DNA from: a virus
Length of the DNA stretch: 64,000 nt
Direction: 5' to 3' (one strand)
IMG/VR virus record: IMGVR_UViG_3300034374_008984
Span: 9,652 to 73,651 of that record
The position numbers were made by a program, and so were the translations under genes. Below the pieces are notes generated by a model. That model made no database searches. It was not told the origin of the DNA and saw only the letters and a list, made by a program, of their open reading frames with translations. This document shows, piece by piece, positions 6,473-60,642 of the stretch; within the stretch, counting starts at the first letter, position 1, and each line of letters opens with the position of its first letter.

Positions 6473-6754
6473 ATGAAAACATACGTGATAGTAAAACGAG
6501 AGTATCAGTACGGACTGGCCAAGAAACTTAACGCGATGGGCGTCAGCACCTCACAGGTGGTTGACACCGTGAAGGGAACCCTTGAAGATGCCGGTCGGGC
6601 ATTGCTCGATAGGCTGCGTGACAACGAGCTTCGTGTAGATGGAGACACCTACTACACACAGGTCAAAGGCGAGTTCATTCCCGCATTCACAGTAGGACAG
6701 GACCACTGCGAGGTAGATGAACTGTGGTCCGAGTTCACTATTGCAGAAGCATAA
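6473..6754 (+). CDS. early hypothetical protein
   Basis: 93-aa ORF, A/C-rich leader. Confidence 0.7.
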   Translation: MKTYVIVKREYQYGLAKKLNAMGVSTSQVVDTVKGTLEDAGRALLDRLRDNELRVDGDTYYTQVKGEFIPAFTVGQDHCEVDELWSEFTIAEA

Positions 6755-8122: not shown

Positions 8123-8166
8123 TTAAAAGATTTCTTTTGCAGGACTTAAAATAAGTGTTACCTTTG
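8123..8166 (+). promoter_or_regulatory. Bacteroidota-type promoter of the replication/recombination operon
   Basis: TTTG...TACCTTTG (8159-8166) with a TTAAAAGA upstream element. Confidence 0.75.
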
Positions 8167-9650: not shown

Positions 9651-9742
9651 AGGGATGCGGCATTGGGTCACCGCTTGTAGCTACCATCCAAGCAAACTGC
9701 GCGGGGGAATTGAGTGGTCGGGTTCGACTCCCGGCATCCCTT
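9651..9742 (+). ncRNA. tRNA-like element (pseudo-tRNA)
   Basis: 7-bp acceptor AGGGATG/CATCCCT, T-arm TCGGG-TTCGACT-CCCGG, stem GCTTG/CAAGC with a non-canonical 11-nt loop, degenerate D-arm. Confidence 0.55.
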
Positions 9743-21767: not shown

Positions 21768-23783
21768 ATGAACAGTAACGAGTACGAGATAGAGACAAGC
21801 CAGCCCGACCCCGAATCGGGAGCCTCTGAGCACGGCAAGGAGGCAACGTCCATCCCTAAGCTGATCCTCCCTGCACCGATACCCGTCAGGCCACCCAAGT
21901 ATTCTCGGAATCAGTACGAGGAGGAACACAAGGAGTGGCTCAGAAAGAAGCGAGGGGAATCGGCATGGAGAACTGAGCAAAGGAGGAGATGGAAAGAGGG
22001 GTTTGCGGGATTGACGGGAATCCACTACTTCTACATTACCCAGATGCGGATAAAGGACGCGGAGGGAAATCCCATCCGGCCCATGTGGAGGGATGTGGAC
22101 GAGGAAATCTTCCGAGAGTTCGAGCTGTGCTACAAGGACGAAATCGACTTCTACGTGTTCAAGAGACGTGAGGTGGGACTTTCATCCGTGTTCGGAGGTG
22201 CGATTCCATTGTACCTCCTCATCATGTACCCCAACAGCACCTCGCTAATGACCTCCGCTGACCTTACCCGCGTGAAGGACCTCATGGCGAACAAGCTCAT
22301 TGCCCAGCACAGCTACCTTGAGGATTGGGTAAAGCCGAAAAGGAAGACCTACGACCCGCAGAAAGGGGCCACGTTCTTGGAGATTGACGAGGACGGCAAC
22401 GAGACAGGGAACATGGCCGAGATTGTTTGCAGGCAGACATCGCAGGATAAGAAGGACGTGACCAACTTGGAGGGCGCAAGGGCCAAGTATGTGTTCCTTG
22501 ACGAGCTCTTCCTTCACCCGTACCCCGAGGAGGTCCGCTCGTCAGCCCAATCGTGTCTCATGTCGGGCATGGAAAGAGTTGGGATCATGGTGGCGGGAGG
22601 TAGCGCGGGTGCCGTGTCGAGGCTCGGACTGAAACAGGCAAGGGAAATATCTCAGAAGGCATTGACGGGAAGCCTGAGAATGCTGTTTCTGTCGGGGGCG
22701 AAGGGGATAACAGCCGCAACGATACGAGATGAGAACGGAAAGAAGATAGGCACGGAGAACTTCTGCATAAACGGATGGTCGGACGTGGCGCGGGCAGAGG
22801 CATACATTAAATGGCAGAGAGCGATACTTGACCTGAGCCCCAACAAACAGGAACTCATCTCATTCACCAAGAGGTATCCGCTCACGCTCGAAGAGGTACT
22901 CACGTCAGACGATTTCGGGGTGATTCCAAGAGACATTGCCGAGCAGATACCCGCACAGGAACTCGAACTAAGAAGCAACCCAAGAAACCTCAAACGGGTC
23001 ACGATAACATTCGAGAACGGGAAGCCAACTTTCAGGAACGACAGCAGAGGCGCGTGGCTCATCCTTGAACACCCGGTCGCTGGAGAGTACTACTGGATGG
23101 GAACGGACGCGATTCCCATGATGGCAAAGAAGGCTGAGGCCACAATAAACCCCGATGGAACGGAGCGGTCGATGCACTGCTCGGCCATTAAACGGAAAGG
23201 CACCAACAGCTACGTTGCCATATATCTCCGCAGGACATCCGATGTGGACCTCATATTCGATGAGATGTTCGCAGCTCAACAGGCATATAACAACTGCCAG
23301 AACATGATTGAGAGAAACTCCGCAGGACTCATCTACGATAGATACTCCCGTAGCGGAAACCTCAAATACCTCGCGTATCAACCAGAAGCGTTCGGCTCCA
23401 AGGGATTCAAGAAGGGAACCGTCAGGGGAGTACACAAGGACGGGCACAACTCGGAAAGGATCTACAACGCAGGGTTCGACTACTTCAGGGACAACATGCG
23501 CCTCGTTGACTTCCCTATCATCCTCGAACAGCTCAGAGTGTTCGGCTCAGAGAACACGGACGTGATTGACGCGATAATGATGTGCGAGGTGTTCCATAAG
23601 TATCAGGAGATCTCAGCAGGGGAACGCGCTGTCAGGGCCATGAAGCAGACCTACAAATACCAACCCTACATCACATACGAGAACGGGAACCGCGTAGTGA
23701 GACACAAGAAGGTGGCCGTCAATTCGGCAGGTCAAGTAATAGGCCCCCATCAAGGAATGACACCACTGACAGGATTATTGTGA
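21768..23783 (+). CDS. terL: terminase large subunit
   Basis: KRREVGLSS (Walker A variant), YVFLDE (Walker B), RNase H-like nuclease GTD/MIERN/DVIDA; promoter TATCTTTG at 21732. Confidence 0.88.
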   Translation: MNSNEYEIETSQPDPESGASEHGKEATSIPKLILPAPIPVRPPKYSRNQYEEEHKEWLRKKRGESAWRTEQRRRWKEGFAGLTGIHYFYITQMRIKDAEGNPIRPMWRDVDEEIFREFELCYKDEIDFYVFKRREVGLSSVFGGAIPLYLLIMYPNSTSLMTSADLTRVKDLMANKLIAQHSYLEDWVKPKRKTYDPQKGATFLEIDEDGNETGNMAEIVCRQTSQDKKDVTNLEGARAKYVFLDELFLHPYPEEVRSSAQSCLMSGMERVGIMVAGGSAGAVSRLGLKQAREISQKALTGSLRMLFLSGAKGITAATIRDENGKKIGTENFCINGWSDVARAEAYIKWQRAILDLSPNKQELISFTKRYPLTLEEVLTSDDFGVIPRDIAEQIPAQELELRSNPRNLKRVTITFENGKPTFRNDSRGAWLILEHPVAGEYYWMGTDAIPMMAKKAEATINPDGTERSMHCSAIKRKGTNSYVAIYLRRTSDVDLIFDEMFAAQQAYNNCQNMIERNSAGLIYDRYSRSGNLKYLAYQPEAFGSKGFKKGTVRGVHKDGHNSERIYNAGFDYFRDNMRLVDFPIILEQLRVFGSENTDVIDAIMMCEVFHKYQEISAGERAVRAMKQTYKYQPYITYENGNRVVRHKKVAVNSAGQVIGPHQGMTPLTGLL

Positions 23784-23835
23784 CTTGTAAAAAATTTATT
23801 TGCACAGGTTAAAAATTGTGCGTAGTTTTGAAGGC

Positions 23836-24222
23836 ATGATCCAATCCACCTCCTGCACGGTGCATCCCTCAATAAGCCCCTCCGAGAATTATCTATCGGT
23901 GTTCCTCGGTGTGCATCAGTACAAAGACCAGTTCGGGGCTTATCCAGTGGCGGTCGTGAAGGACAAGAACGGGAGACTCATGCAGTGCAAGCTGTCGGCA
24001 GTGGAGGTAGAGGTTCCTTGGGGGATACCTTGCAGGGTCATCTACAAGGACACCGACTACACGACACTGTTCTTGGGCACGTTCGACTTCTCCGATGGAG
24101 AGAAATCCTATCCGGTGGCCGTTATCAGGAACCAGGATGGGAGGTTGCAGGCAATCCGTTTGGAGGCCGTTCACTTTCTCTCCTCCGTGTATCTCTTTGA
24201 AAGAAAAAAGAATGAACCATGA
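23836..24222 (+). CDS. hypothetical protein with internal duplication
   Basis: Two copies of FLG...YPVAV++..+GRL...L.AV; ATG 5 nt after a TTTG-N20-TAGTTTTG promoter. Confidence 0.75.
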   Translation: MIQSTSCTVHPSISPSENYLSVFLGVHQYKDQFGAYPVAVVKDKNGRLMQCKLSAVEVEVPWGIPCRVIYKDTDYTTLFLGTFDFSDGEKSYPVAVIRNQDGRLQAIRLEAVHFLSSVYLFERKKNEP

Positions 24223-24401
24223 ACCTCCCCGACACCCCATACAAGATAGGCTCCACCCGAATCCTCAACGAGGGCAAGAAGTGGTTTCTTTGCAGGGCCA
24301 CCCCTCCGATACACAAAGGGTTCTGCTATGTGGTCTGGAAGAAAATCAAAGAAGTGCCCAATCAAACAGGAAAGTCGCAGCTTGAGTTTCAGTTTGGGTA
24401 A
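24219..24401 (+). CDS. small hypothetical protein
   Basis: ATGA overlap; its TAA stop is part of the GGGTAAC core at the left edge of the cassette array. Confidence 0.6.
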   Translation: MNLPDTPYKIGSTRILNEGKKWFLCRATPPIHKGFCYVVWKKIKEVPNQTGKSQLEFQFG

Positions 24402-24484
24402 CGTATTGGTATATGGTTAGTGCCGTGTAAATAGCACAGACCTTTGAATTAAGAACAGAAGTAATAATTAAATATTTTTAGAGC

Positions 24485-25177
24485 GTGGGCAAAATAAATA
24501 ACTTATATACAGCAGAAGCATTATCATTTATGAAGGAAATGAATGATAACTCTGTTGACATAATAGTAACATCACCACCGTATAATTTAATGGGGCAATA
24601 CTCTTGTAAATCACAAATGAACAGAAGTTTTACAAGTAAAAGGCTTGAAGATTGGTATGATGATAAAATGGATGAAAAAGAATACCAACAATGGCAAAAA
24701 GAATGTGTTAGGGAAATGGTTAGAATATGTAAAGGAAGTGTTTTTTACGTGCATCAAGTTAGATATGCTTGGGGTAGAAAAAACGAGTTTTACCACCCTA
24801 TACATTGGTTAAATGAATTTGTTATATGGTCTGAAATAATTTGGAATAGAGGAAATGGTATAAGTGCTGCAAAAAGACCAACAATGGCTGACCAAAGGAT
24901 TTATATGATTGGTAAACCTAAAGTTTGGAATAAGCCAAATTGCACAAGTGTTTGGGATATACCTTCTGTTAGAAATTCTAATCACGTTTGTCCATTTCCT
25001 GATGAATTAGTAGAAAGATGTTTAAATATGTGTAGTAATGAAGGCGATATTGTTTTTGACCCATTTGTAGGTATAGGAACAACAGCAAGAGTTGCTAAAA
25101 AAATGAATAGAAAATATATTGGTGTTGATATAAATGAAAATTATATAAACGAAGCTAAAACCAAATTGCTGACGTAG
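24485..25177 (+). CDS. N4-C/N6-A DNA methyltransferase (beta class)
   Basis: TSPPYN, H.CPFP, DPFVGIGTT; flanked by a 15-nt direct repeat. Confidence 0.93.
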   Translation: MGKINNLYTAEALSFMKEMNDNSVDIIVTSPPYNLMGQYSCKSQMNRSFTSKRLEDWYDDKMDEKEYQQWQKECVREMVRICKGSVFYVHQVRYAWGRKNEFYHPIHWLNEFVIWSEIIWNRGNGISAAKRPTMADQRIYMIGKPKVWNKPNCTSVWDIPSVRNSNHVCPFPDELVERCLNMCSNEGDIVFDPFVGIGTTARVAKKMNRKYIGVDINENYINEAKTKLLT

Positions 25178-25294
25178 GAAACAAAAGAGCGTGGGCAAAA
25201 AATATTTAATTATGGGTAAAAAGGCACAAACGATTGAATTAAGCACGAACTTAGGCATTAACTATATACCGTGTTGTAAAATCGTTTTAATGTT

Positions 25295-25427
25295 TTACAA
25301 CGTTTTCGGGCTTGGCGAAGGCGGGGATTTAACCACAAAAGTTTAATAGAATGACAGAAGATAATTTACATACAAAAGTTGATTTGGAAAACGGAAGCCC
25401 CGCTTTTGCCAAACCCGTGTTATACGC
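25295..25427. repeat. attC-like hairpin 2 (about 133 nt)
   Basis: TTACAAC...CGGGCTTGGCGAAGGCGGGG (25307-25326) / CCCCGCTTTTGCCAAACCCG (25398-25417)...GTTATAC. Confidence 0.8.
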
Positions 25428-26064
25428 TGGGGCGGGTATCAAGGCAAACATTTCAATTTATAACGAGGACTGTTTGCAAGCATTAAAGGCAATGGCAGAC
25501 AAACAATTTGATTTAGCCATAGTTGACCCACCTTACGGAATAGGAGCAGAAAACCACGCAGGCAATAAAGATAATGGATGGACACAATGGGCTAAAAAAG
25601 ATTGGGATAAGGCAATACCAACGGCTGAATATTGGGAGCAACTTTTTAGGGTAAGCAAAAATCAAATTGTTTGGGGTGCAAATTATATGACGGAATACTT
25701 ACCACCTAAAATGGGTTGGATTGTTTGGGATAAAGGGCAAAGGGATTTTAGCCTTGCTGACGGAGAACTTGCTTGGACTTCATTTGATAAAGCAATGAGG
25801 ATATTTACTTACGCAAGAGCAAAAGCATTAAAGGAAGGTAAAATACATCCAACGCAAAAGCCGACTGATTTATACAAATGGCTTTTAGATAAGTATGCAA
25901 AGCAAGGCGATAAAATCCTTGACACCCATTTAGGAAGTGGAAGTATTGCCATTGCCTGCTGGGATATGGGTTACGACTTAACAGCCTATGAAGTTGATAA
26001 GGAGTATTACGATAATGCTTGCAAACGATTAGAAACGCATAAGTCTCAATTAACGCTATGGTAG
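25351..26064 (+). CDS. N6-A/N4-C DNA methyltransferase (beta class)
   Basis: VDPPYG, IHPTQKP, DTHLGSGS. Confidence 0.93.
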   Translation: MTEDNLHTKVDLENGSPAFAKPVLYAGAGIKANISIYNEDCLQALKAMADKQFDLAIVDPPYGIGAENHAGNKDNGWTQWAKKDWDKAIPTAEYWEQLFRVSKNQIVWGANYMTEYLPPKMGWIVWDKGQRDFSLADGELAWTSFDKAMRIFTYARAKALKEGKIHPTQKPTDLYKWLLDKYAKQGDKILDTHLGSGSIAIACWDMGYDLTAYEVDKEYYDNACKRLETHKSQLTLW

Positions 26065-26106
26065 CCCTTGCGTATAACTCTCCGATACACGAAAGTTTAC
26101 TATGCA

Positions 26107-26337
26107 ATGAAACACACAGTGTCAACAACATACGATTTAGTGTGGCAGATTAGTGGCGCGGAGCATTACAAGTTTACTTCTGATGGCATCTGCATAAATA
26201 CCCGAACAGGAAAACGAATAAAGAAGACCCTTTGTGGCCGTTCTGTCGGGTATTGCATTTCGGGGAAATTCGTGTCGACCACTACGCTAAGGACACGACT
26301 TCAGCGAATCCCGAAAGAGATTTCCTGCCCGTTCTGA
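26107..26337 (+). CDS. small hypothetical protein next to the array
   Basis: ATG 26107; HYKFTSDGICINTRTGKRIK loosely resembles NUMOD4-like beta modules. Confidence 0.65.
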   Translation: MKHTVSTTYDLVWQISGAEHYKFTSDGICINTRTGKRIKKTLCGRSVGYCISGKFVSTTTLRTRLQRIPKEISCPF

Positions 26338-26396
26338 CATCATTCCCTCCATTGCGTTCCCTTCCGTAGCTTTGTCCCCTACGGAGATAACTCAGC

Positions 26397-28610
26397 ATGG
26401 ACAACTACAAGCTACTTGACACGGAAGGCCCATCGCATCAGATGGAGACCCACCGCCCTAATGTCGTAGGCACGAAACGGGCCCTGAAAAAAGAACACAA
26501 GGGGATGCACGGCATGATTGCCAAGTACCTCCGCTTCATGGTCACGCAGTGGAACCTCGACTACAATACCCCTCTCTACTCCACGAGGAATCCCGGCCAC
26601 ATCCTTCACAGGTCTCCCGTAGAGGAGATGCTCCTCAATTACAAGTACTATCAGTCCCAGCAGGATGTTAACAGCTATGCCTACCTGACAGAAACCGCAG
26701 AGGGGGAGGAGCGTCCAGCCAAATTTACCCATGGTTCAGAGATCTATCAGGTGGTGCAGCACATGGTAGGCCCCGTTGTGAAGCACTTCGCAGGGACAAC
26801 CATCACAATCGAATCCCTTGATCCCTCCGTGCAGTCCAAGCGGCAGGCCAAGGTCGCAATGCTTCAAGCCAAGAAACTCCTGCCAGACATCTTCAAGAGG
26901 TTCTCCGAAATGGGCGCCACGTTCATGCCTGAAGGAGCAACCGAGGCAAAGGACATGGACGGGGCTATTCAGGAGGCGCTGAGAAAACCAGCCCACAAGG
27001 TCGAGCGGTACGGCATGGACATCCTTACTCATGTCAACAACACCAACAGCGTAAAGGACTACATGCCCAAGCGTTTCAAGGATGTCGTCATTGGAAGGCA
27101 TTGCGCAACGCACAGAACAGTATCCAATGGAAGAATCGTCCTCGAAAAGATTGACCCTTGGAACCTCATCTTCGACAGAGACAACTCAGATGACGACTAC
27201 AACAGGTACGCCCTGTTCAAGGGATTCATCAGTTGGAAATCCCACGAGGAGATCATGCAGGCGTACACCCTCGGAAGCGATGCCGAGGAAGAACTCAAGA
27301 AGCTCTTCGACAGCAACAGGAGTGCAACACTGCCGGGACTCAACGGAGTGATGGGTAATGTCCCCCAATCTGGATTCTCTTGGCTGGAATCGGACGGACC
27401 CCGTAGAATAGCCTGTGTGACAGGATACTTCATCGCCACGATAAAGGAAGATGACGGGACATCCTATCAGACCATCTACGAGGGGACTTTGATAGGAAAC
27501 ACGGTGCTTGTCAACTTCGGGGAATCCAACAACATCAGCTACGACATAGCCCGACCTGAGTGGCCGGTCATGCCCATCCATATCTACAGCCCCGACACGA
27601 TACTCGGAACGAACGTCTGTCCCGTGGACCGGTTCAGAGAAATGCAGGAGGACTTGGATGCGTTCAAGTACAAGATTCGGGAACACATCGACAGAGACCT
27701 CGGAAAGGGGTATGTGTTCTATGCGGATACAGCCGTTCCGAAAGACATCATTGAAGACCTCAAGAACTTCGGTGTAACAGTCATCAACAGGGCCGACCCC
27801 GAGGAACCCATCATCAACAACAACAGGATGGTGGACACAGTGGACATGACCCTTGACCCTAACGTGGCACAGTACATAGCCCTGCGAAAGGAGTTCAAAG
27901 CGGACATGGACAATGTGGTATCCCAATCGAACATCACGAGAGGGATGCAGCAGACGTACATCGGTGGAGGTACACAGCAGGCCACCGTTGCACAGGCCAG
28001 CAACGGCACCGTTTCTCTCATGTCGGGATTCTTCCAACACTTTGCCTTCATAGAGCAGGACATATTAAATACCGCCAAGACAATGCTCTTGGAGCCCAAG
28101 AACAGGGAAGAGGCGGAACTCATTCTCTCTGACGCAAGCGCAGATTTCTGGGAGGCCATGCAAGACCTCAATGTCATCGACATGCAGGTGCGTATCGAGA
28201 TGGAGGACTTCATTGACGAGGAGCGCAGGGCAAGGTATCAGCAATATGCCCTCGCAATGGCACAGAACGCGAGAGAGACAGGGTTCACAATGCTCGATGC
28301 CATCAACATCGAGAACGCCCGCACAAGTCAGGAGTTGATGACCAAACTGAAAGAGTCCCTCGAACTGAAAGAACTGAAAGCCGAGCGCATGAGACAAGAA
28401 GACATGGCTATGCAGCAGCAGATGCAACAGATGCAGATGCAGCAGCAAGGTCAGATGTTCCAACTCGAAGAACAGAACAAGGCTCTTCGAGACCAGATCC
28501 GCAACGCGCCCAAGCACGAGGCCAATCAGATCAAACGCGAGGAGATGAACATGTCAAGGGACATGGTATTCGCCTCCGAAGCAGGAATGCCAGGAACAGA
28601 AGTGGAATAA
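26397..28610 (+). CDS. portal protein (putative)
   Basis: 737 aa between terL and scaffold/capsid; IDPWNLIFD motif, Gln-rich coiled C-terminus; promoter TAGCTTTG at 26367. Confidence 0.75.
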   Translation: MDNYKLLDTEGPSHQMETHRPNVVGTKRALKKEHKGMHGMIAKYLRFMVTQWNLDYNTPLYSTRNPGHILHRSPVEEMLLNYKYYQSQQDVNSYAYLTETAEGEERPAKFTHGSEIYQVVQHMVGPVVKHFAGTTITIESLDPSVQSKRQAKVAMLQAKKLLPDIFKRFSEMGATFMPEGATEAKDMDGAIQEALRKPAHKVERYGMDILTHVNNTNSVKDYMPKRFKDVVIGRHCATHRTVSNGRIVLEKIDPWNLIFDRDNSDDDYNRYALFKGFISWKSHEEIMQAYTLGSDAEEELKKLFDSNRSATLPGLNGVMGNVPQSGFSWLESDGPRRIACVTGYFIATIKEDDGTSYQTIYEGTLIGNTVLVNFGESNNISYDIARPEWPVMPIHIYSPDTILGTNVCPVDRFREMQEDLDAFKYKIREHIDRDLGKGYVFYADTAVPKDIIEDLKNFGVTVINRADPEEPIINNNRMVDTVDMTLDPNVAQYIALRKEFKADMDNVVSQSNITRGMQQTYIGGGTQQATVAQASNGTVSLMSGFFQHFAFIEQDILNTAKTMLLEPKNREEAELILSDASADFWEAMQDLNVIDMQVRIEMEDFIDEERRARYQQYALAMAQNARETGFTMLDAINIENARTSQELMTKLKESLELKELKAERMRQEDMAMQQQMQQMQMQQQGQMFQLEEQNKALRDQIRNAPKHEANQIKREEMNMSRDMVFASEAGMPGTEVE

Positions 28611-37868: not shown

Positions 37869-37942
37869 CAAATGTACATAGAAAAAATTTACCTCAAACA
37901 CATGAAACCTGTTTTTTTATACGGATGAAGGAGTTACTTTTG
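37869..37942. promoter_or_regulatory. divergent promoter pair
   Basis: CAAATGTA (= TACATTTG on minus) at 37869-37876 and TACTTTTG on plus at 37935-37942. Confidence 0.75.
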
Positions 37943-60496: not shown

Positions 60497-60642
60497 GTTA
60501 CGCAAACCGTTGCCGTCATTTGATTTACCGTGGTCTGTCTGTCACAAAAAGGTGCTACTTTTGCATTGCATATCGCGATTTGCGATTACCTTTGCCGTGC
60601 CGCGATATTGGACTGGGGTGTCCCCGATCGGTCGCTGCATGG

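Follow-up and report, generated by a model that had tools for sequence, protein, structure and literature searches.

We analysed a 64,000-nucleotide stretch of viral DNA, hereafter the window, which covers positions 9,652 to 73,651 of the IMG/VR record IMGVR_UViG_3300034374_008984, a complete phage record of 73,651 bp with direct terminal repeats. Between the genes for the large terminase (21768–23783) and the portal protein (26397–28610) lies a low-GC island of about 1.7 kb (GC 0.29–0.43), inside a phage backbone with a GC content of about 0.52. The island comprises two modules, at 24400–25301 and at 25302–26078. The first of them, with a GC content of 0.29–0.35 against about 0.52 for the backbone, is a DNA methyltransferase gene enclosed by two arms that can pair with each other across the gene. 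This bracketed cassette, which is present in a single copy in the record, is the subject of our study, and its parts are the following.

24400–24407, + strand: left junction AAC-GTATT, where similarity to the donor-type contig L001 begins
24408–24424, + strand: left basal arm GGTATATGGTTAGTGCC, partner of 25254–25270
24425–24463, + strand: left middle segment, which repeats the right one in direct rather than inverted orientation (about 70% alike), with TTGAATTAAG in both
24464–24479, + strand: left tip arm ATAATTAAATATTTTT, pairing at 16 of 16 positions with 25198–25213
24480–24494, + strand: left copy of the 15-nt motif, carrying the GTG start and the first codons (V-G-K)
24485–25177, + strand: cargo, an SPPY N6_N4 DNA methyltransferase of 230 amino acids (PF01555), 97% identical in L001/L002
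25166–25184, + strand: small stem-loop (TTGC...CAA) that overlaps the stop codon, decayed here but intact and covarying in relatives
25186–25200, + strand: right copy of the 15-nt motif, an exact repeat of 24480–24494
25198–25213, + strand: right tip arm AAAAATATTTAATTAT, partner of the left tip
25214–25253, + strand: right middle segment, the same sequence as the loop of empty solo hairpins
25254–25270, + strand: right basal arm GGCATTAACTATATACC, partner of the left basal arm
25271–25301, + strand: terminal stem-loop GTGTTGTAAAA-TCGTTTTAATG-TTTTACAAC, with conserved loop and covarying stems, where similarity to L001 ends

The AAC of the left junction resembles the 3′ terminus of a half stem-loop. 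The cargo matches PF01555 over profile positions 1–220 of 221 (E = 3.9e-37; 128.8 bits against a gathering cut-off of 26.7), and SPPY is present in its translation. GTG at 24485 opens the sole long open reading frame (ORF; 24485–25177), while a TAG at 24479–24481 shuts the frame upstream.

A preliminary description of this locus had placed the methyltransferase in the loop of a hairpin, flanked by a 15-nt direct repeat that includes its GTG start and by a perfect 16-nt inverted repeat. Both repeats are present as described, the direct repeat AGAGCGTGGGCAAAA at 24480–24494 and 25186–25200 and the inverted repeat at 24464–24479 and 25198–25213. Among 500 dinucleotide shuffles of 24380–25340, an exact direct repeat of at least 15 nt arose in two, and an exact inverted repeat of at least 16 nt in none. 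The outer helix, formed by 24408–24424 and 25254–25270, has 17 bp, of which 15 are Watson–Crick and two are G·T. When the 706 bp from 24480 to 25185 were removed in silico, the joined 255 nt folded at −31.5 kcal/mol (DNA parameters), compared with −22.9 ± 3.1 for shuffles (z = −2.8), in agreement with the compact hairpin that had been proposed for this joint.

Within the arms, 24429–24475 and 25219–25265 form a 47-nt direct repeat (70%) between segments that are inverted repeats, and in L001 and L013 the TTGAATTAAG of these middles is altered in parallel in both copies. The frame of a small ORF at 25191–25346, starting in the right tip, is not preserved across loci, and this ORF was therefore taken as non-coding.

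Unrelated genes between the same paired arms

Relatives of the cassette were sought with the left basal arm as the search key. A 17-nt version of this arm gave 13 matches in the viral contigs, 12 of them true relatives, and a 23-nt version matched 35 metagenome contigs; combined, the two scans yielded 33 distinct contexts, including a chance match in L007. In the genome contigs one of seven matches was real, on a contig of a metagenome-assembled genome of Flavobacteriaceae. The left arm had no match among cultured phages, and there the right arm matched only with its stem-loop end, in two Cellulophaga phages (four records, two accessions each). When the 15-nt motif alone was scanned in the viral contigs, it returned more than 118 mostly single, chance-like matches, of which only those in L005 and L009 overlap the arm set. 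The Rfam 15 covariance models gave no match on 23500–26800 at E-values up to 1, and a literature search found no description of the bracketed element.

In nearly all loci that are long enough, arm profiles detect a left and then a right arm on the same strand, 110–1100 nt apart. The 27 cargo proteins between them fall into 13 groups unrelated by BLAST, or into 20 groups at ≥50% identity. A Pfam scan of 20 cargos assigned eight to the N6_N4 methylases, three to Mom, one to PAPS reductase-like enzymes, one to the C5 methylases and one weakly to TRM, and six had no family; the smallest cargos are 58–61 amino acids long (L006, L147). The element is a real swappable gene slot, with at least 13 unrelated gene families between the same arms. 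A full left/right slot occurs once per record in the five records searched, together with a few partial copies, and the region around it is rich in modification genes.

The breadth of these contexts speaks to another account of the locus, a one-off microhomology insertion or an invertible, phase-variable segment between inverted repeats. In its favour are the single copy in the window genome and the inverted repeats that flank the gene. According to the preliminary description, a one-off event would be indicated if no other gene were bounded by the same repeats; instead, many genes share the arms and the motif, and about 30 independent contexts with the same arms and other genes already refute the one-off reading. 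As for inversion, the cargo ORF lies on the strand of the arms in every left–right pair found (the minus strand between the arms was not scanned), and no serine or tyrosine invertase is present. We regard this explanation as having next to no probability.

Several relatives have more elaborate arrangements. Positions 6600–11740 of L008 (record G001) form a 5-kb run of DNA-modification genes with structured elements between them, in the order small bracketed ORF, N6_N4 methylase, EcoRI-like methylase, solo hairpin, Mom and a loaded slot with another Mom. L009/L001, an IMG/VR contig of 7688 nt, carries the methylase cassette and a 93-aa ORF twice in tandem round a second methylase (A-B-A), with ATTGTACATAAC at the joints; its sister contig L016 has a single cassette copy with a Mom gene instead. 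L005, the 22-kb record G005, is a temperate relative in which three or more cassettes, whose arms differ, precede a tyrosine integrase and a tRNA-like stretch.

The pairing of the arms is kept by compensatory change. The consensus fold of 20 distinct left–right pairs comprises the basal helix, the tip helix, the small stem-loop and a terminal stem-loop of the form GTT-N6-TCGTTTTAATG-N6′-AAC. The tip helix shows a matched one-base change, with AAA/TTT in one set and AAAA/TTTT in another, and L005 has three compensatory pairs. Over all predicted pairs, 1096 pair cells are Watson–Crick, 114 are G·T and 13 are A·C. The placing of the methyltransferase within the loop of a conserved hairpin is borne out, with the same arms pairing around genes elsewhere.

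Brackets of other sequence were also found. The second cassette of G005 has the arms GGTATATGATGTGTAGC / GCTATACATTATATGC with its own tip and motif, and further brackets enclose small genes in L008 and L140 as well as gp03 of Cellulophaga phage phi39:1 and gp045 of phi19:1. Plain inverted-repeat detection or sequence reading identified three more covarying brackets, around the second methylase of the window, around gp005 of hemulen and around the second methylase of L001. The bracket of gp005 (L189, Flavobacterium phage hemulen6-1), GTTACCAGCAGTGCC / GGCATTGCTGGTAAC, is unlike that of the window in sequence, lies in the same places and is internally complementary. There are ten bracket helices in all (nine around genes, one empty), with differing or covarying sequence, and their G·T wobbles fit the coding strand only. 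Within the five helices found without a G·T-tolerant search, the transition mismatches are seven G·T and no A·C, or five and none when the homologous main and solo helices are counted once. Given that the wobbles are G·T on the + strand, the structure forms on this strand, as RNA or as single-stranded DNA.

The terminal stem-loop belongs to a family of its own, GTT-N6-TCGTTTTAATG-N6′-AAC, with an invariant loop and freely covarying stems, with only one to three members per phage record, which always lie beside cassettes on the same strand. Members occur in the window (25271–25301), L006, L012, L013, L141, L017, L190 (Cellulophaga phage phi39:1, 890–960) and L191, and phi39:1 has two such stem-loops in tandem immediately upstream of terS. 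Chimeric or half stem-loops in L141, L017 and L015 suggest crossovers within the loop.

Motif, empty forms and the question of site-specific insertion

The left copy of the 15-nt motif stands directly after the T-run of the tip arm and contains the start codon in most loci. It takes the forms AGAGCG-ATG-GCA-AAA, ATG-AGC-GAG-GGC-AAA-AAA and AGAGCG-GTG-GAA-AAA, with AGAGCG-(GTG)-GGC-AAA in the window. The variant read as MSEG.. (ATGAGCGAGGGCAAAA) is the N-terminus of five proteins from five unrelated groups, and the VEK., MAK. and VGK. variants are likewise common to unrelated cargos. In L159 and L161 the left motif is untranslated and followed by the cargo's own leader; in L005, L146 and the second methylase of L001 it is untranslated and followed by a small stem-loop and a leader. 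The right copy is nearly constant, AAAGAGCG[T/A][G/T]GGCAAAAAAA. Because the start-codon variants are common to unrelated cargos and the right copy is near-constant, the repeat is best read as a part of the arms rather than as a fresh target duplication. We lean towards regarding it as a conserved functional part of both arms, which marks a sharp, common arm–cargo junction and is not a target-site duplication.

Ahead of the right motif, relatives carry a self-closing small stem-loop with covarying stems (TTGC/GCAA, TTGGT/ACCAA, TTGTTTT/AAAACAA, TTGCGC/GCGCAA). The preliminary description had drawn another hairpin at this point, TTGC-TG-ACG with CGT-GG-GCAA, in which the gene end pairs with the right repeat; the window permits this pairing (7 of 9 positions), but related loci do not conserve it. 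The same description had taken CGTGGGC as the core of a second site-specific system that inserts genes into the tips of the sites of a first one. This core is variable elsewhere (GCGATGGC, GCGGTGGA or GCGAGGGC), and the left copy doubles as the start and first codons of the gene. Nor is the motif a universal boundary, since L006 and L010 have both tips and the motif on neither side. The arms do not behave as the independent site of another system either: they covary within each cassette and travelled with the gene in the window. The idea of a cassette proves right in outline, but the evidence does not support a second site-specific system built on a CGTGGGC core.

The recombinase that had been expected to accompany such a system was not encountered; neither of the two complete bracket-carrying genomes (G000, G002) encodes one of the tyrosine (PF00589) or serine (PF00239) type. 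Both families are likewise missing from the partial carriers G001 and G004. PF00589 was found in G005 only, as a prophage integrase beside the tRNA-like stretch.

With respect to empty forms, the predicted hairpin of about 180 nt, with the tips and one repeat copy, occurred neither in the metagenome contigs (exact arms, gap of 105–135) nor in any of 204 loci. A related, shorter kind does exist. This solo hairpin consists of the basal arms and two compensating G–C pairs, with a 36-nt loop of right-middle sequence and without tips or motif. It is present in five distinct contigs (L008, L199=L203, L200, L201, L202=L204), with fold z-scores of −3.6 to −5.3 and outer flanks that covary (ACAAC/GTTGT or ATAAC/GTTAT). 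These hairpins are a lineage apart, and one genome (L008) has a solo hairpin alongside a loaded slot; solo and loaded forms are therefore not alleles. They show that the bracket can stand alone; gene entry or exit does not follow from them. In run X12, a single contig joins 24479 to 25179, with 26 letters on the shorter side and an intervening sequence that is not known. We rejected it as an empty allele: the joint fits another cargo ending ...AAACAAAA and was found in 0 of 204 loci.

A genuine site- or structure-specific cassette system has to be weighed at this point. Here the folded + strand, as single-stranded DNA, would bring the motif copies together atop the tip helix, and a recombinase, possibly host-encoded (for example Xer), or a template-switching polymerase would excise or insert motif-bounded genes; whole cassettes would cross over at a second site, in the loop of the terminal stem-loop. 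Such a system would account for the sharp left junction, common to unrelated cargos right after the A-run of the motif, for the recurrence of the motif–gene–motif core in three outer hairpins, and for breakpoints within the conserved loop of the terminal stem-loop. The tandem A-B-A duplication of the entire cassette in L009, the wobbles confined to the + strand, as in folded attC strands, the existence of empty solo hairpins and the one X12 contig joining 24479 to 25179 are also in its favour. However, complete carriers are without a PF00589 or PF00239 recombinase, the predicted empty tip form was not found, and the solo hairpins, with their two extra G–C pairs, are a separate, non-allelic lineage in the same genome as a loaded slot. 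Furthermore, the L006 and L010 brackets are without the motif, the motif varies with coding needs, and the X12 joint has 26 letters on one side and fits another cargo. A circular intermediate would leave a cassette-specific match between the upstream half stem-loop and the downstream stem-loop, and this match was not significant: the mean was 6.12 pairs, where the null gave 5.85 (P = 0.13), and at least 8 pairs were seen in 3 of 17 (P = 0.24). We consider a system of this kind unlikely.

Import of the unit and exchange between phages

The viral contigs L001/L009 and L002/L016 carry a methylase 97% identical to that of the window, with flanks that are alike. In the alignment of the window with L001, similarity begins with AACG at 24400 and stops where the stem-loop ends, at 25301, with a mean column identity of 96%, and the sequence outside is unaligned. 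As the similarity is confined to 24400–25301, the mobile unit took in both arms, and the alignment shows that the whole unit, arms included, is what entered this phage. It is somewhat probable that this block is a single bracketed cassette, complete in itself, which came from low-GC phages of Flavobacteriaceae-type hosts. A distant relative of the window phage (terminase 59% identical) has the order terminase, one small ORF and portal, without the methylase; no relatives of the portal were found in the viral contigs or among cultured phages. In four freshwater runs, the arms reach 3–10 times the summed backbone depth, and contigs break at the arms. An L001-like cassette variant is present in these same runs, deeper than the phage of the window, which places donor and recipient in one community.

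The insertion of the unit with both arms into an unrelated phage of 52% GC could also be the work of a non-autonomous transposon with cargo, similar to a miniature inverted-repeat transposable element, whose arms would be the terminal inverted repeats and AACG a short target duplication. AACG stands at both ends in the window and in both copies of L001, and L009 has two copies. Against this, there is one slot per genome and copies are not dispersed, the element being confined to one syntenic slot. A search of the complete genomes for PF00589 and PF00239 recombinases, though not for DDE or HUH transposases, found none. The arms are long composites whose middles lie in direct orientation, and their one-strand G·T wobbles point to a folded single strand rather than to duplex binding sites of a transposase. 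AAC, moreover, is the conserved end of the neighbouring stem-loop, and AACG is common to all neighbouring stem-loops. A transposon is thus a very improbable explanation.

The second module of the island has its own bracket.

25302–26078, + strand: second imported module, with a leader that it shares with Flavobacterium phage hemulen gp005, a DPPY methyltransferase ORF (25351–26064) and its own bracket
25419–25433 and 26064–26078, + strand: bracket of the second module, the inverted repeat GTTATACGCTGGGGC / GCCCTTGCGTATAAC, a 15-nt helix

The DNA of this second methylase (25351–26064) is 71% identical to that of hemulen gp005. Its true start is possibly a GTG in frame at 25417, and its leader contains a GCGAAGGCGGGG / CCCCGCTTTTGC hairpin that also occurs in hemulen. 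The entire low-GC island is bordered by an imperfect 19-nt direct repeat (16/19) at 24304–24322 and 26080–26098, CTCCGATACAC(A/G)AA.G.TT, the right copy of which starts two bases past the terminal ...GTATAAC of the second module. This repeat may be due to chance or may be a trace of the entry of the island.

Comparison of relatives locates exchanges at the edges of the modules. L012 and L015 share 98.2% identity across the 3.3 kb downstream of their slots and have unrelated cargos; their similarity resumes in the loop and the 3′ half of the terminal stem-loop. L141 and L017 combine stem-loop halves from different variants. L012 and L170 have left arms that are 99% and right arms that are 92% identical, with unrelated cargos and backbones. 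From these three patterns it follows that modules reassort at their boundaries. This reassortment would fit recombination between co-infecting phages with common arms of 90–130 nt, by analogy with the promoter early stem-loops (PeSLs) of T4-type phages.

Scans of the + strand of the arms for sigma-70-like sites and for terminators gave nothing above shuffles. TTTG-N17-23-TAnnTTTG is a promoter pattern of the Bacteroidota type. It has no match in 24400–25350, a result that applies to host-type and not to phage-specific promoters. The window contains four matches, at 23799–23830, 8136–8166 and 60560–60594 on the + strand and at 37869–37898 on the − strand, compared with 1.13 expected; 2 of 100 shuffles reach four. 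These matches hint at a Bacteroidota host. With the match at 23799–23830 lying upstream, the left arm is probably transcribed, and this promoter could drive transcription through the cassette.

We favour, with modest confidence, a conserved module for expression and exchange that probably works as an RNA clamp and is shuffled by recombination as are the PeSLs of T4. The unit would consist of a left arm (a 5′ leader ending in the start-codon motif), a swappable DNA-modification gene, a right arm (the small stem-loop, the second motif copy and a 3′ trailer) and the terminal stem-loop, and the arms would pair on the coding strand via the basal 17-bp and the tip 16-bp helices. We hypothesize that the helix acts in the mRNA, as a clamp or a processing site in transcripts that encode a DNA-modifying enzyme of potential harm. 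This could occur through excision of the RNase III type, or through occlusion of the A/U-rich start region once the 3′ arm has been transcribed. Turnover of the cargo may proceed by ordinary phage recombination in the conserved arms, the motif and the loop of the terminal stem-loop, with no need of a dedicated recombinase.

Several observations weigh against such a recombination-shuffled clamp. At least ten unrelated genes are joined at an identical point past the A-run of the motif, so that homologous recombination alone is insufficient to explain their arrival; a mechanism of some kind must have made these joints. The motif–gene–motif core lies within three different outer hairpins (the main arms, cassette A of G005 and the second methylase of L001), an outcome that site-directed insertion would give. 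L015 has a left arm without a right arm, and the clamp is therefore dispensable. There is one full slot per genome, compared with about 50 PeSLs per genome. Part of the structural evidence is also coloured by how it was gathered: the left basal arm is invariant because it served as the search key, which is ascertainment. Similarly, among seven helices (six gene brackets and the empty solo hairpin) with 99 Watson–Crick, 16 G·T/T·G, one A·C and two other pairs, five came from a search that counted G·T as a pair. Finally, RNA and + strand single-stranded DNA are indistinguishable from the DNA contigs of sequencing runs, and RNA runs contained only 0.05–0.07 of the sequence words.

A broader proposal, which we put forward only tentatively, is that of an undescribed class of structure-defined cassettes in phages of Flavobacteriaceae and freshwater relatives. 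Each would hold an accessory gene, in most cases one for an anti-restriction DNA modifier, within the loop of a strand-specific long-range hairpin, with the 15-nt motif on the inner edges and the TCGTTTTAATG-loop stem-loop on the outer edge, and excision, insertion or template switching would act on the folded single strand itself.

Significance and relation to known systems

According to a study of Baltic Flavobacterium phages, 35 phages carry 15 different methyltransferase genes, one of them linked to plating efficiency, and methyltransferase content is a known host-range correlate in these phages (PMC7077304). A conserved slot that takes methylases, Mom and PAPS-reductase-like enzymes and can jump as a unit into an unrelated phage of 52% GC would explain how aquatic phages re-tool rapidly against restriction. 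The gene-bracketing helix with its coding-strand wobbles represents a concrete cis-element, and Flavobacterium phage hemulen6-1 (gp005) and the Cellulophaga phages phi39:1 (gp03) and phi19:1 (gp045) carry it in culture. A helix that controls translation or processing would offer a novel means of dosing toxic genes; one that serves as a recombination substrate would define a new cassette system, and with the folded strand as the substrate this would amount to an integrase-free analogue of integrons inside virulent phages.

The cassette resembles those of integrons in that promoterless, swappable ORFs are bounded by imperfect hairpins, seemingly on one strand. Its terminal stem-loop is closed by GTT...AAC and occupies an attC-like position, and the chimeric stem-loops suggest crossover within the site. 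In contrast to attC, which lies wholly 3′ of its ORF, the pairing arms here stand on both sides of the ORF in every instance. Complete carriers have no IntI or any other tyrosine recombinase, there is no attI or Pc platform, and the element sits on genomes of virulent-type phages.

Long-range processing stems bracket the 16S and 23S rRNAs, and RNase III sites occur in the early mRNAs of phage T7. Similarly, a helix of 17–19 bp is formed here from either side of a functional unit, and the solo form folds between genes into a compact hairpin, about 27 bp long and with an internal loop. The unit here is, however, a protein-coding accessory gene, and the likeness in processing would hold by analogy. 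In the com-mom control of phage Mu, the start region of a toxic modification gene is held in a local RNA stem that is opened by Com. Mom is the cargo in 3 of the 20 scanned cassettes, and the start region may likewise be held in an RNA stem, although the partner strand here lies beyond the stop codon.

The closest parallel is with the PeSLs. These are short, conserved, non-coding stem-loop modules that flank variable, non-essential genes in a plastic region of T4-type phages, and recombination between modules replaces, deletes or duplicates genes; there is one type of module, with about 50 per genome and a sigma-70 promoter inside (Arbiol et al. 2010, PMC2839356; Comeau et al. 2014, PMC4122927). 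With these, the cassettes share the start codon at the 3′ edge of the module, G–T pairs in the stems and the flanking of variable genes, and exchanges map to the modules (13 cargo groups; the L012/L015 breakpoint in the stem-loop). They differ in having distinct left and right modules that pair across the gene, one full slot per genome, bracket arms without a promoter match, a repeated 15-nt motif on both inner edges and a cargo biased to DNA modification. By this analogy, the element would work most like an exchange module of the PeSL type, minus the promoter and the multicopy features.

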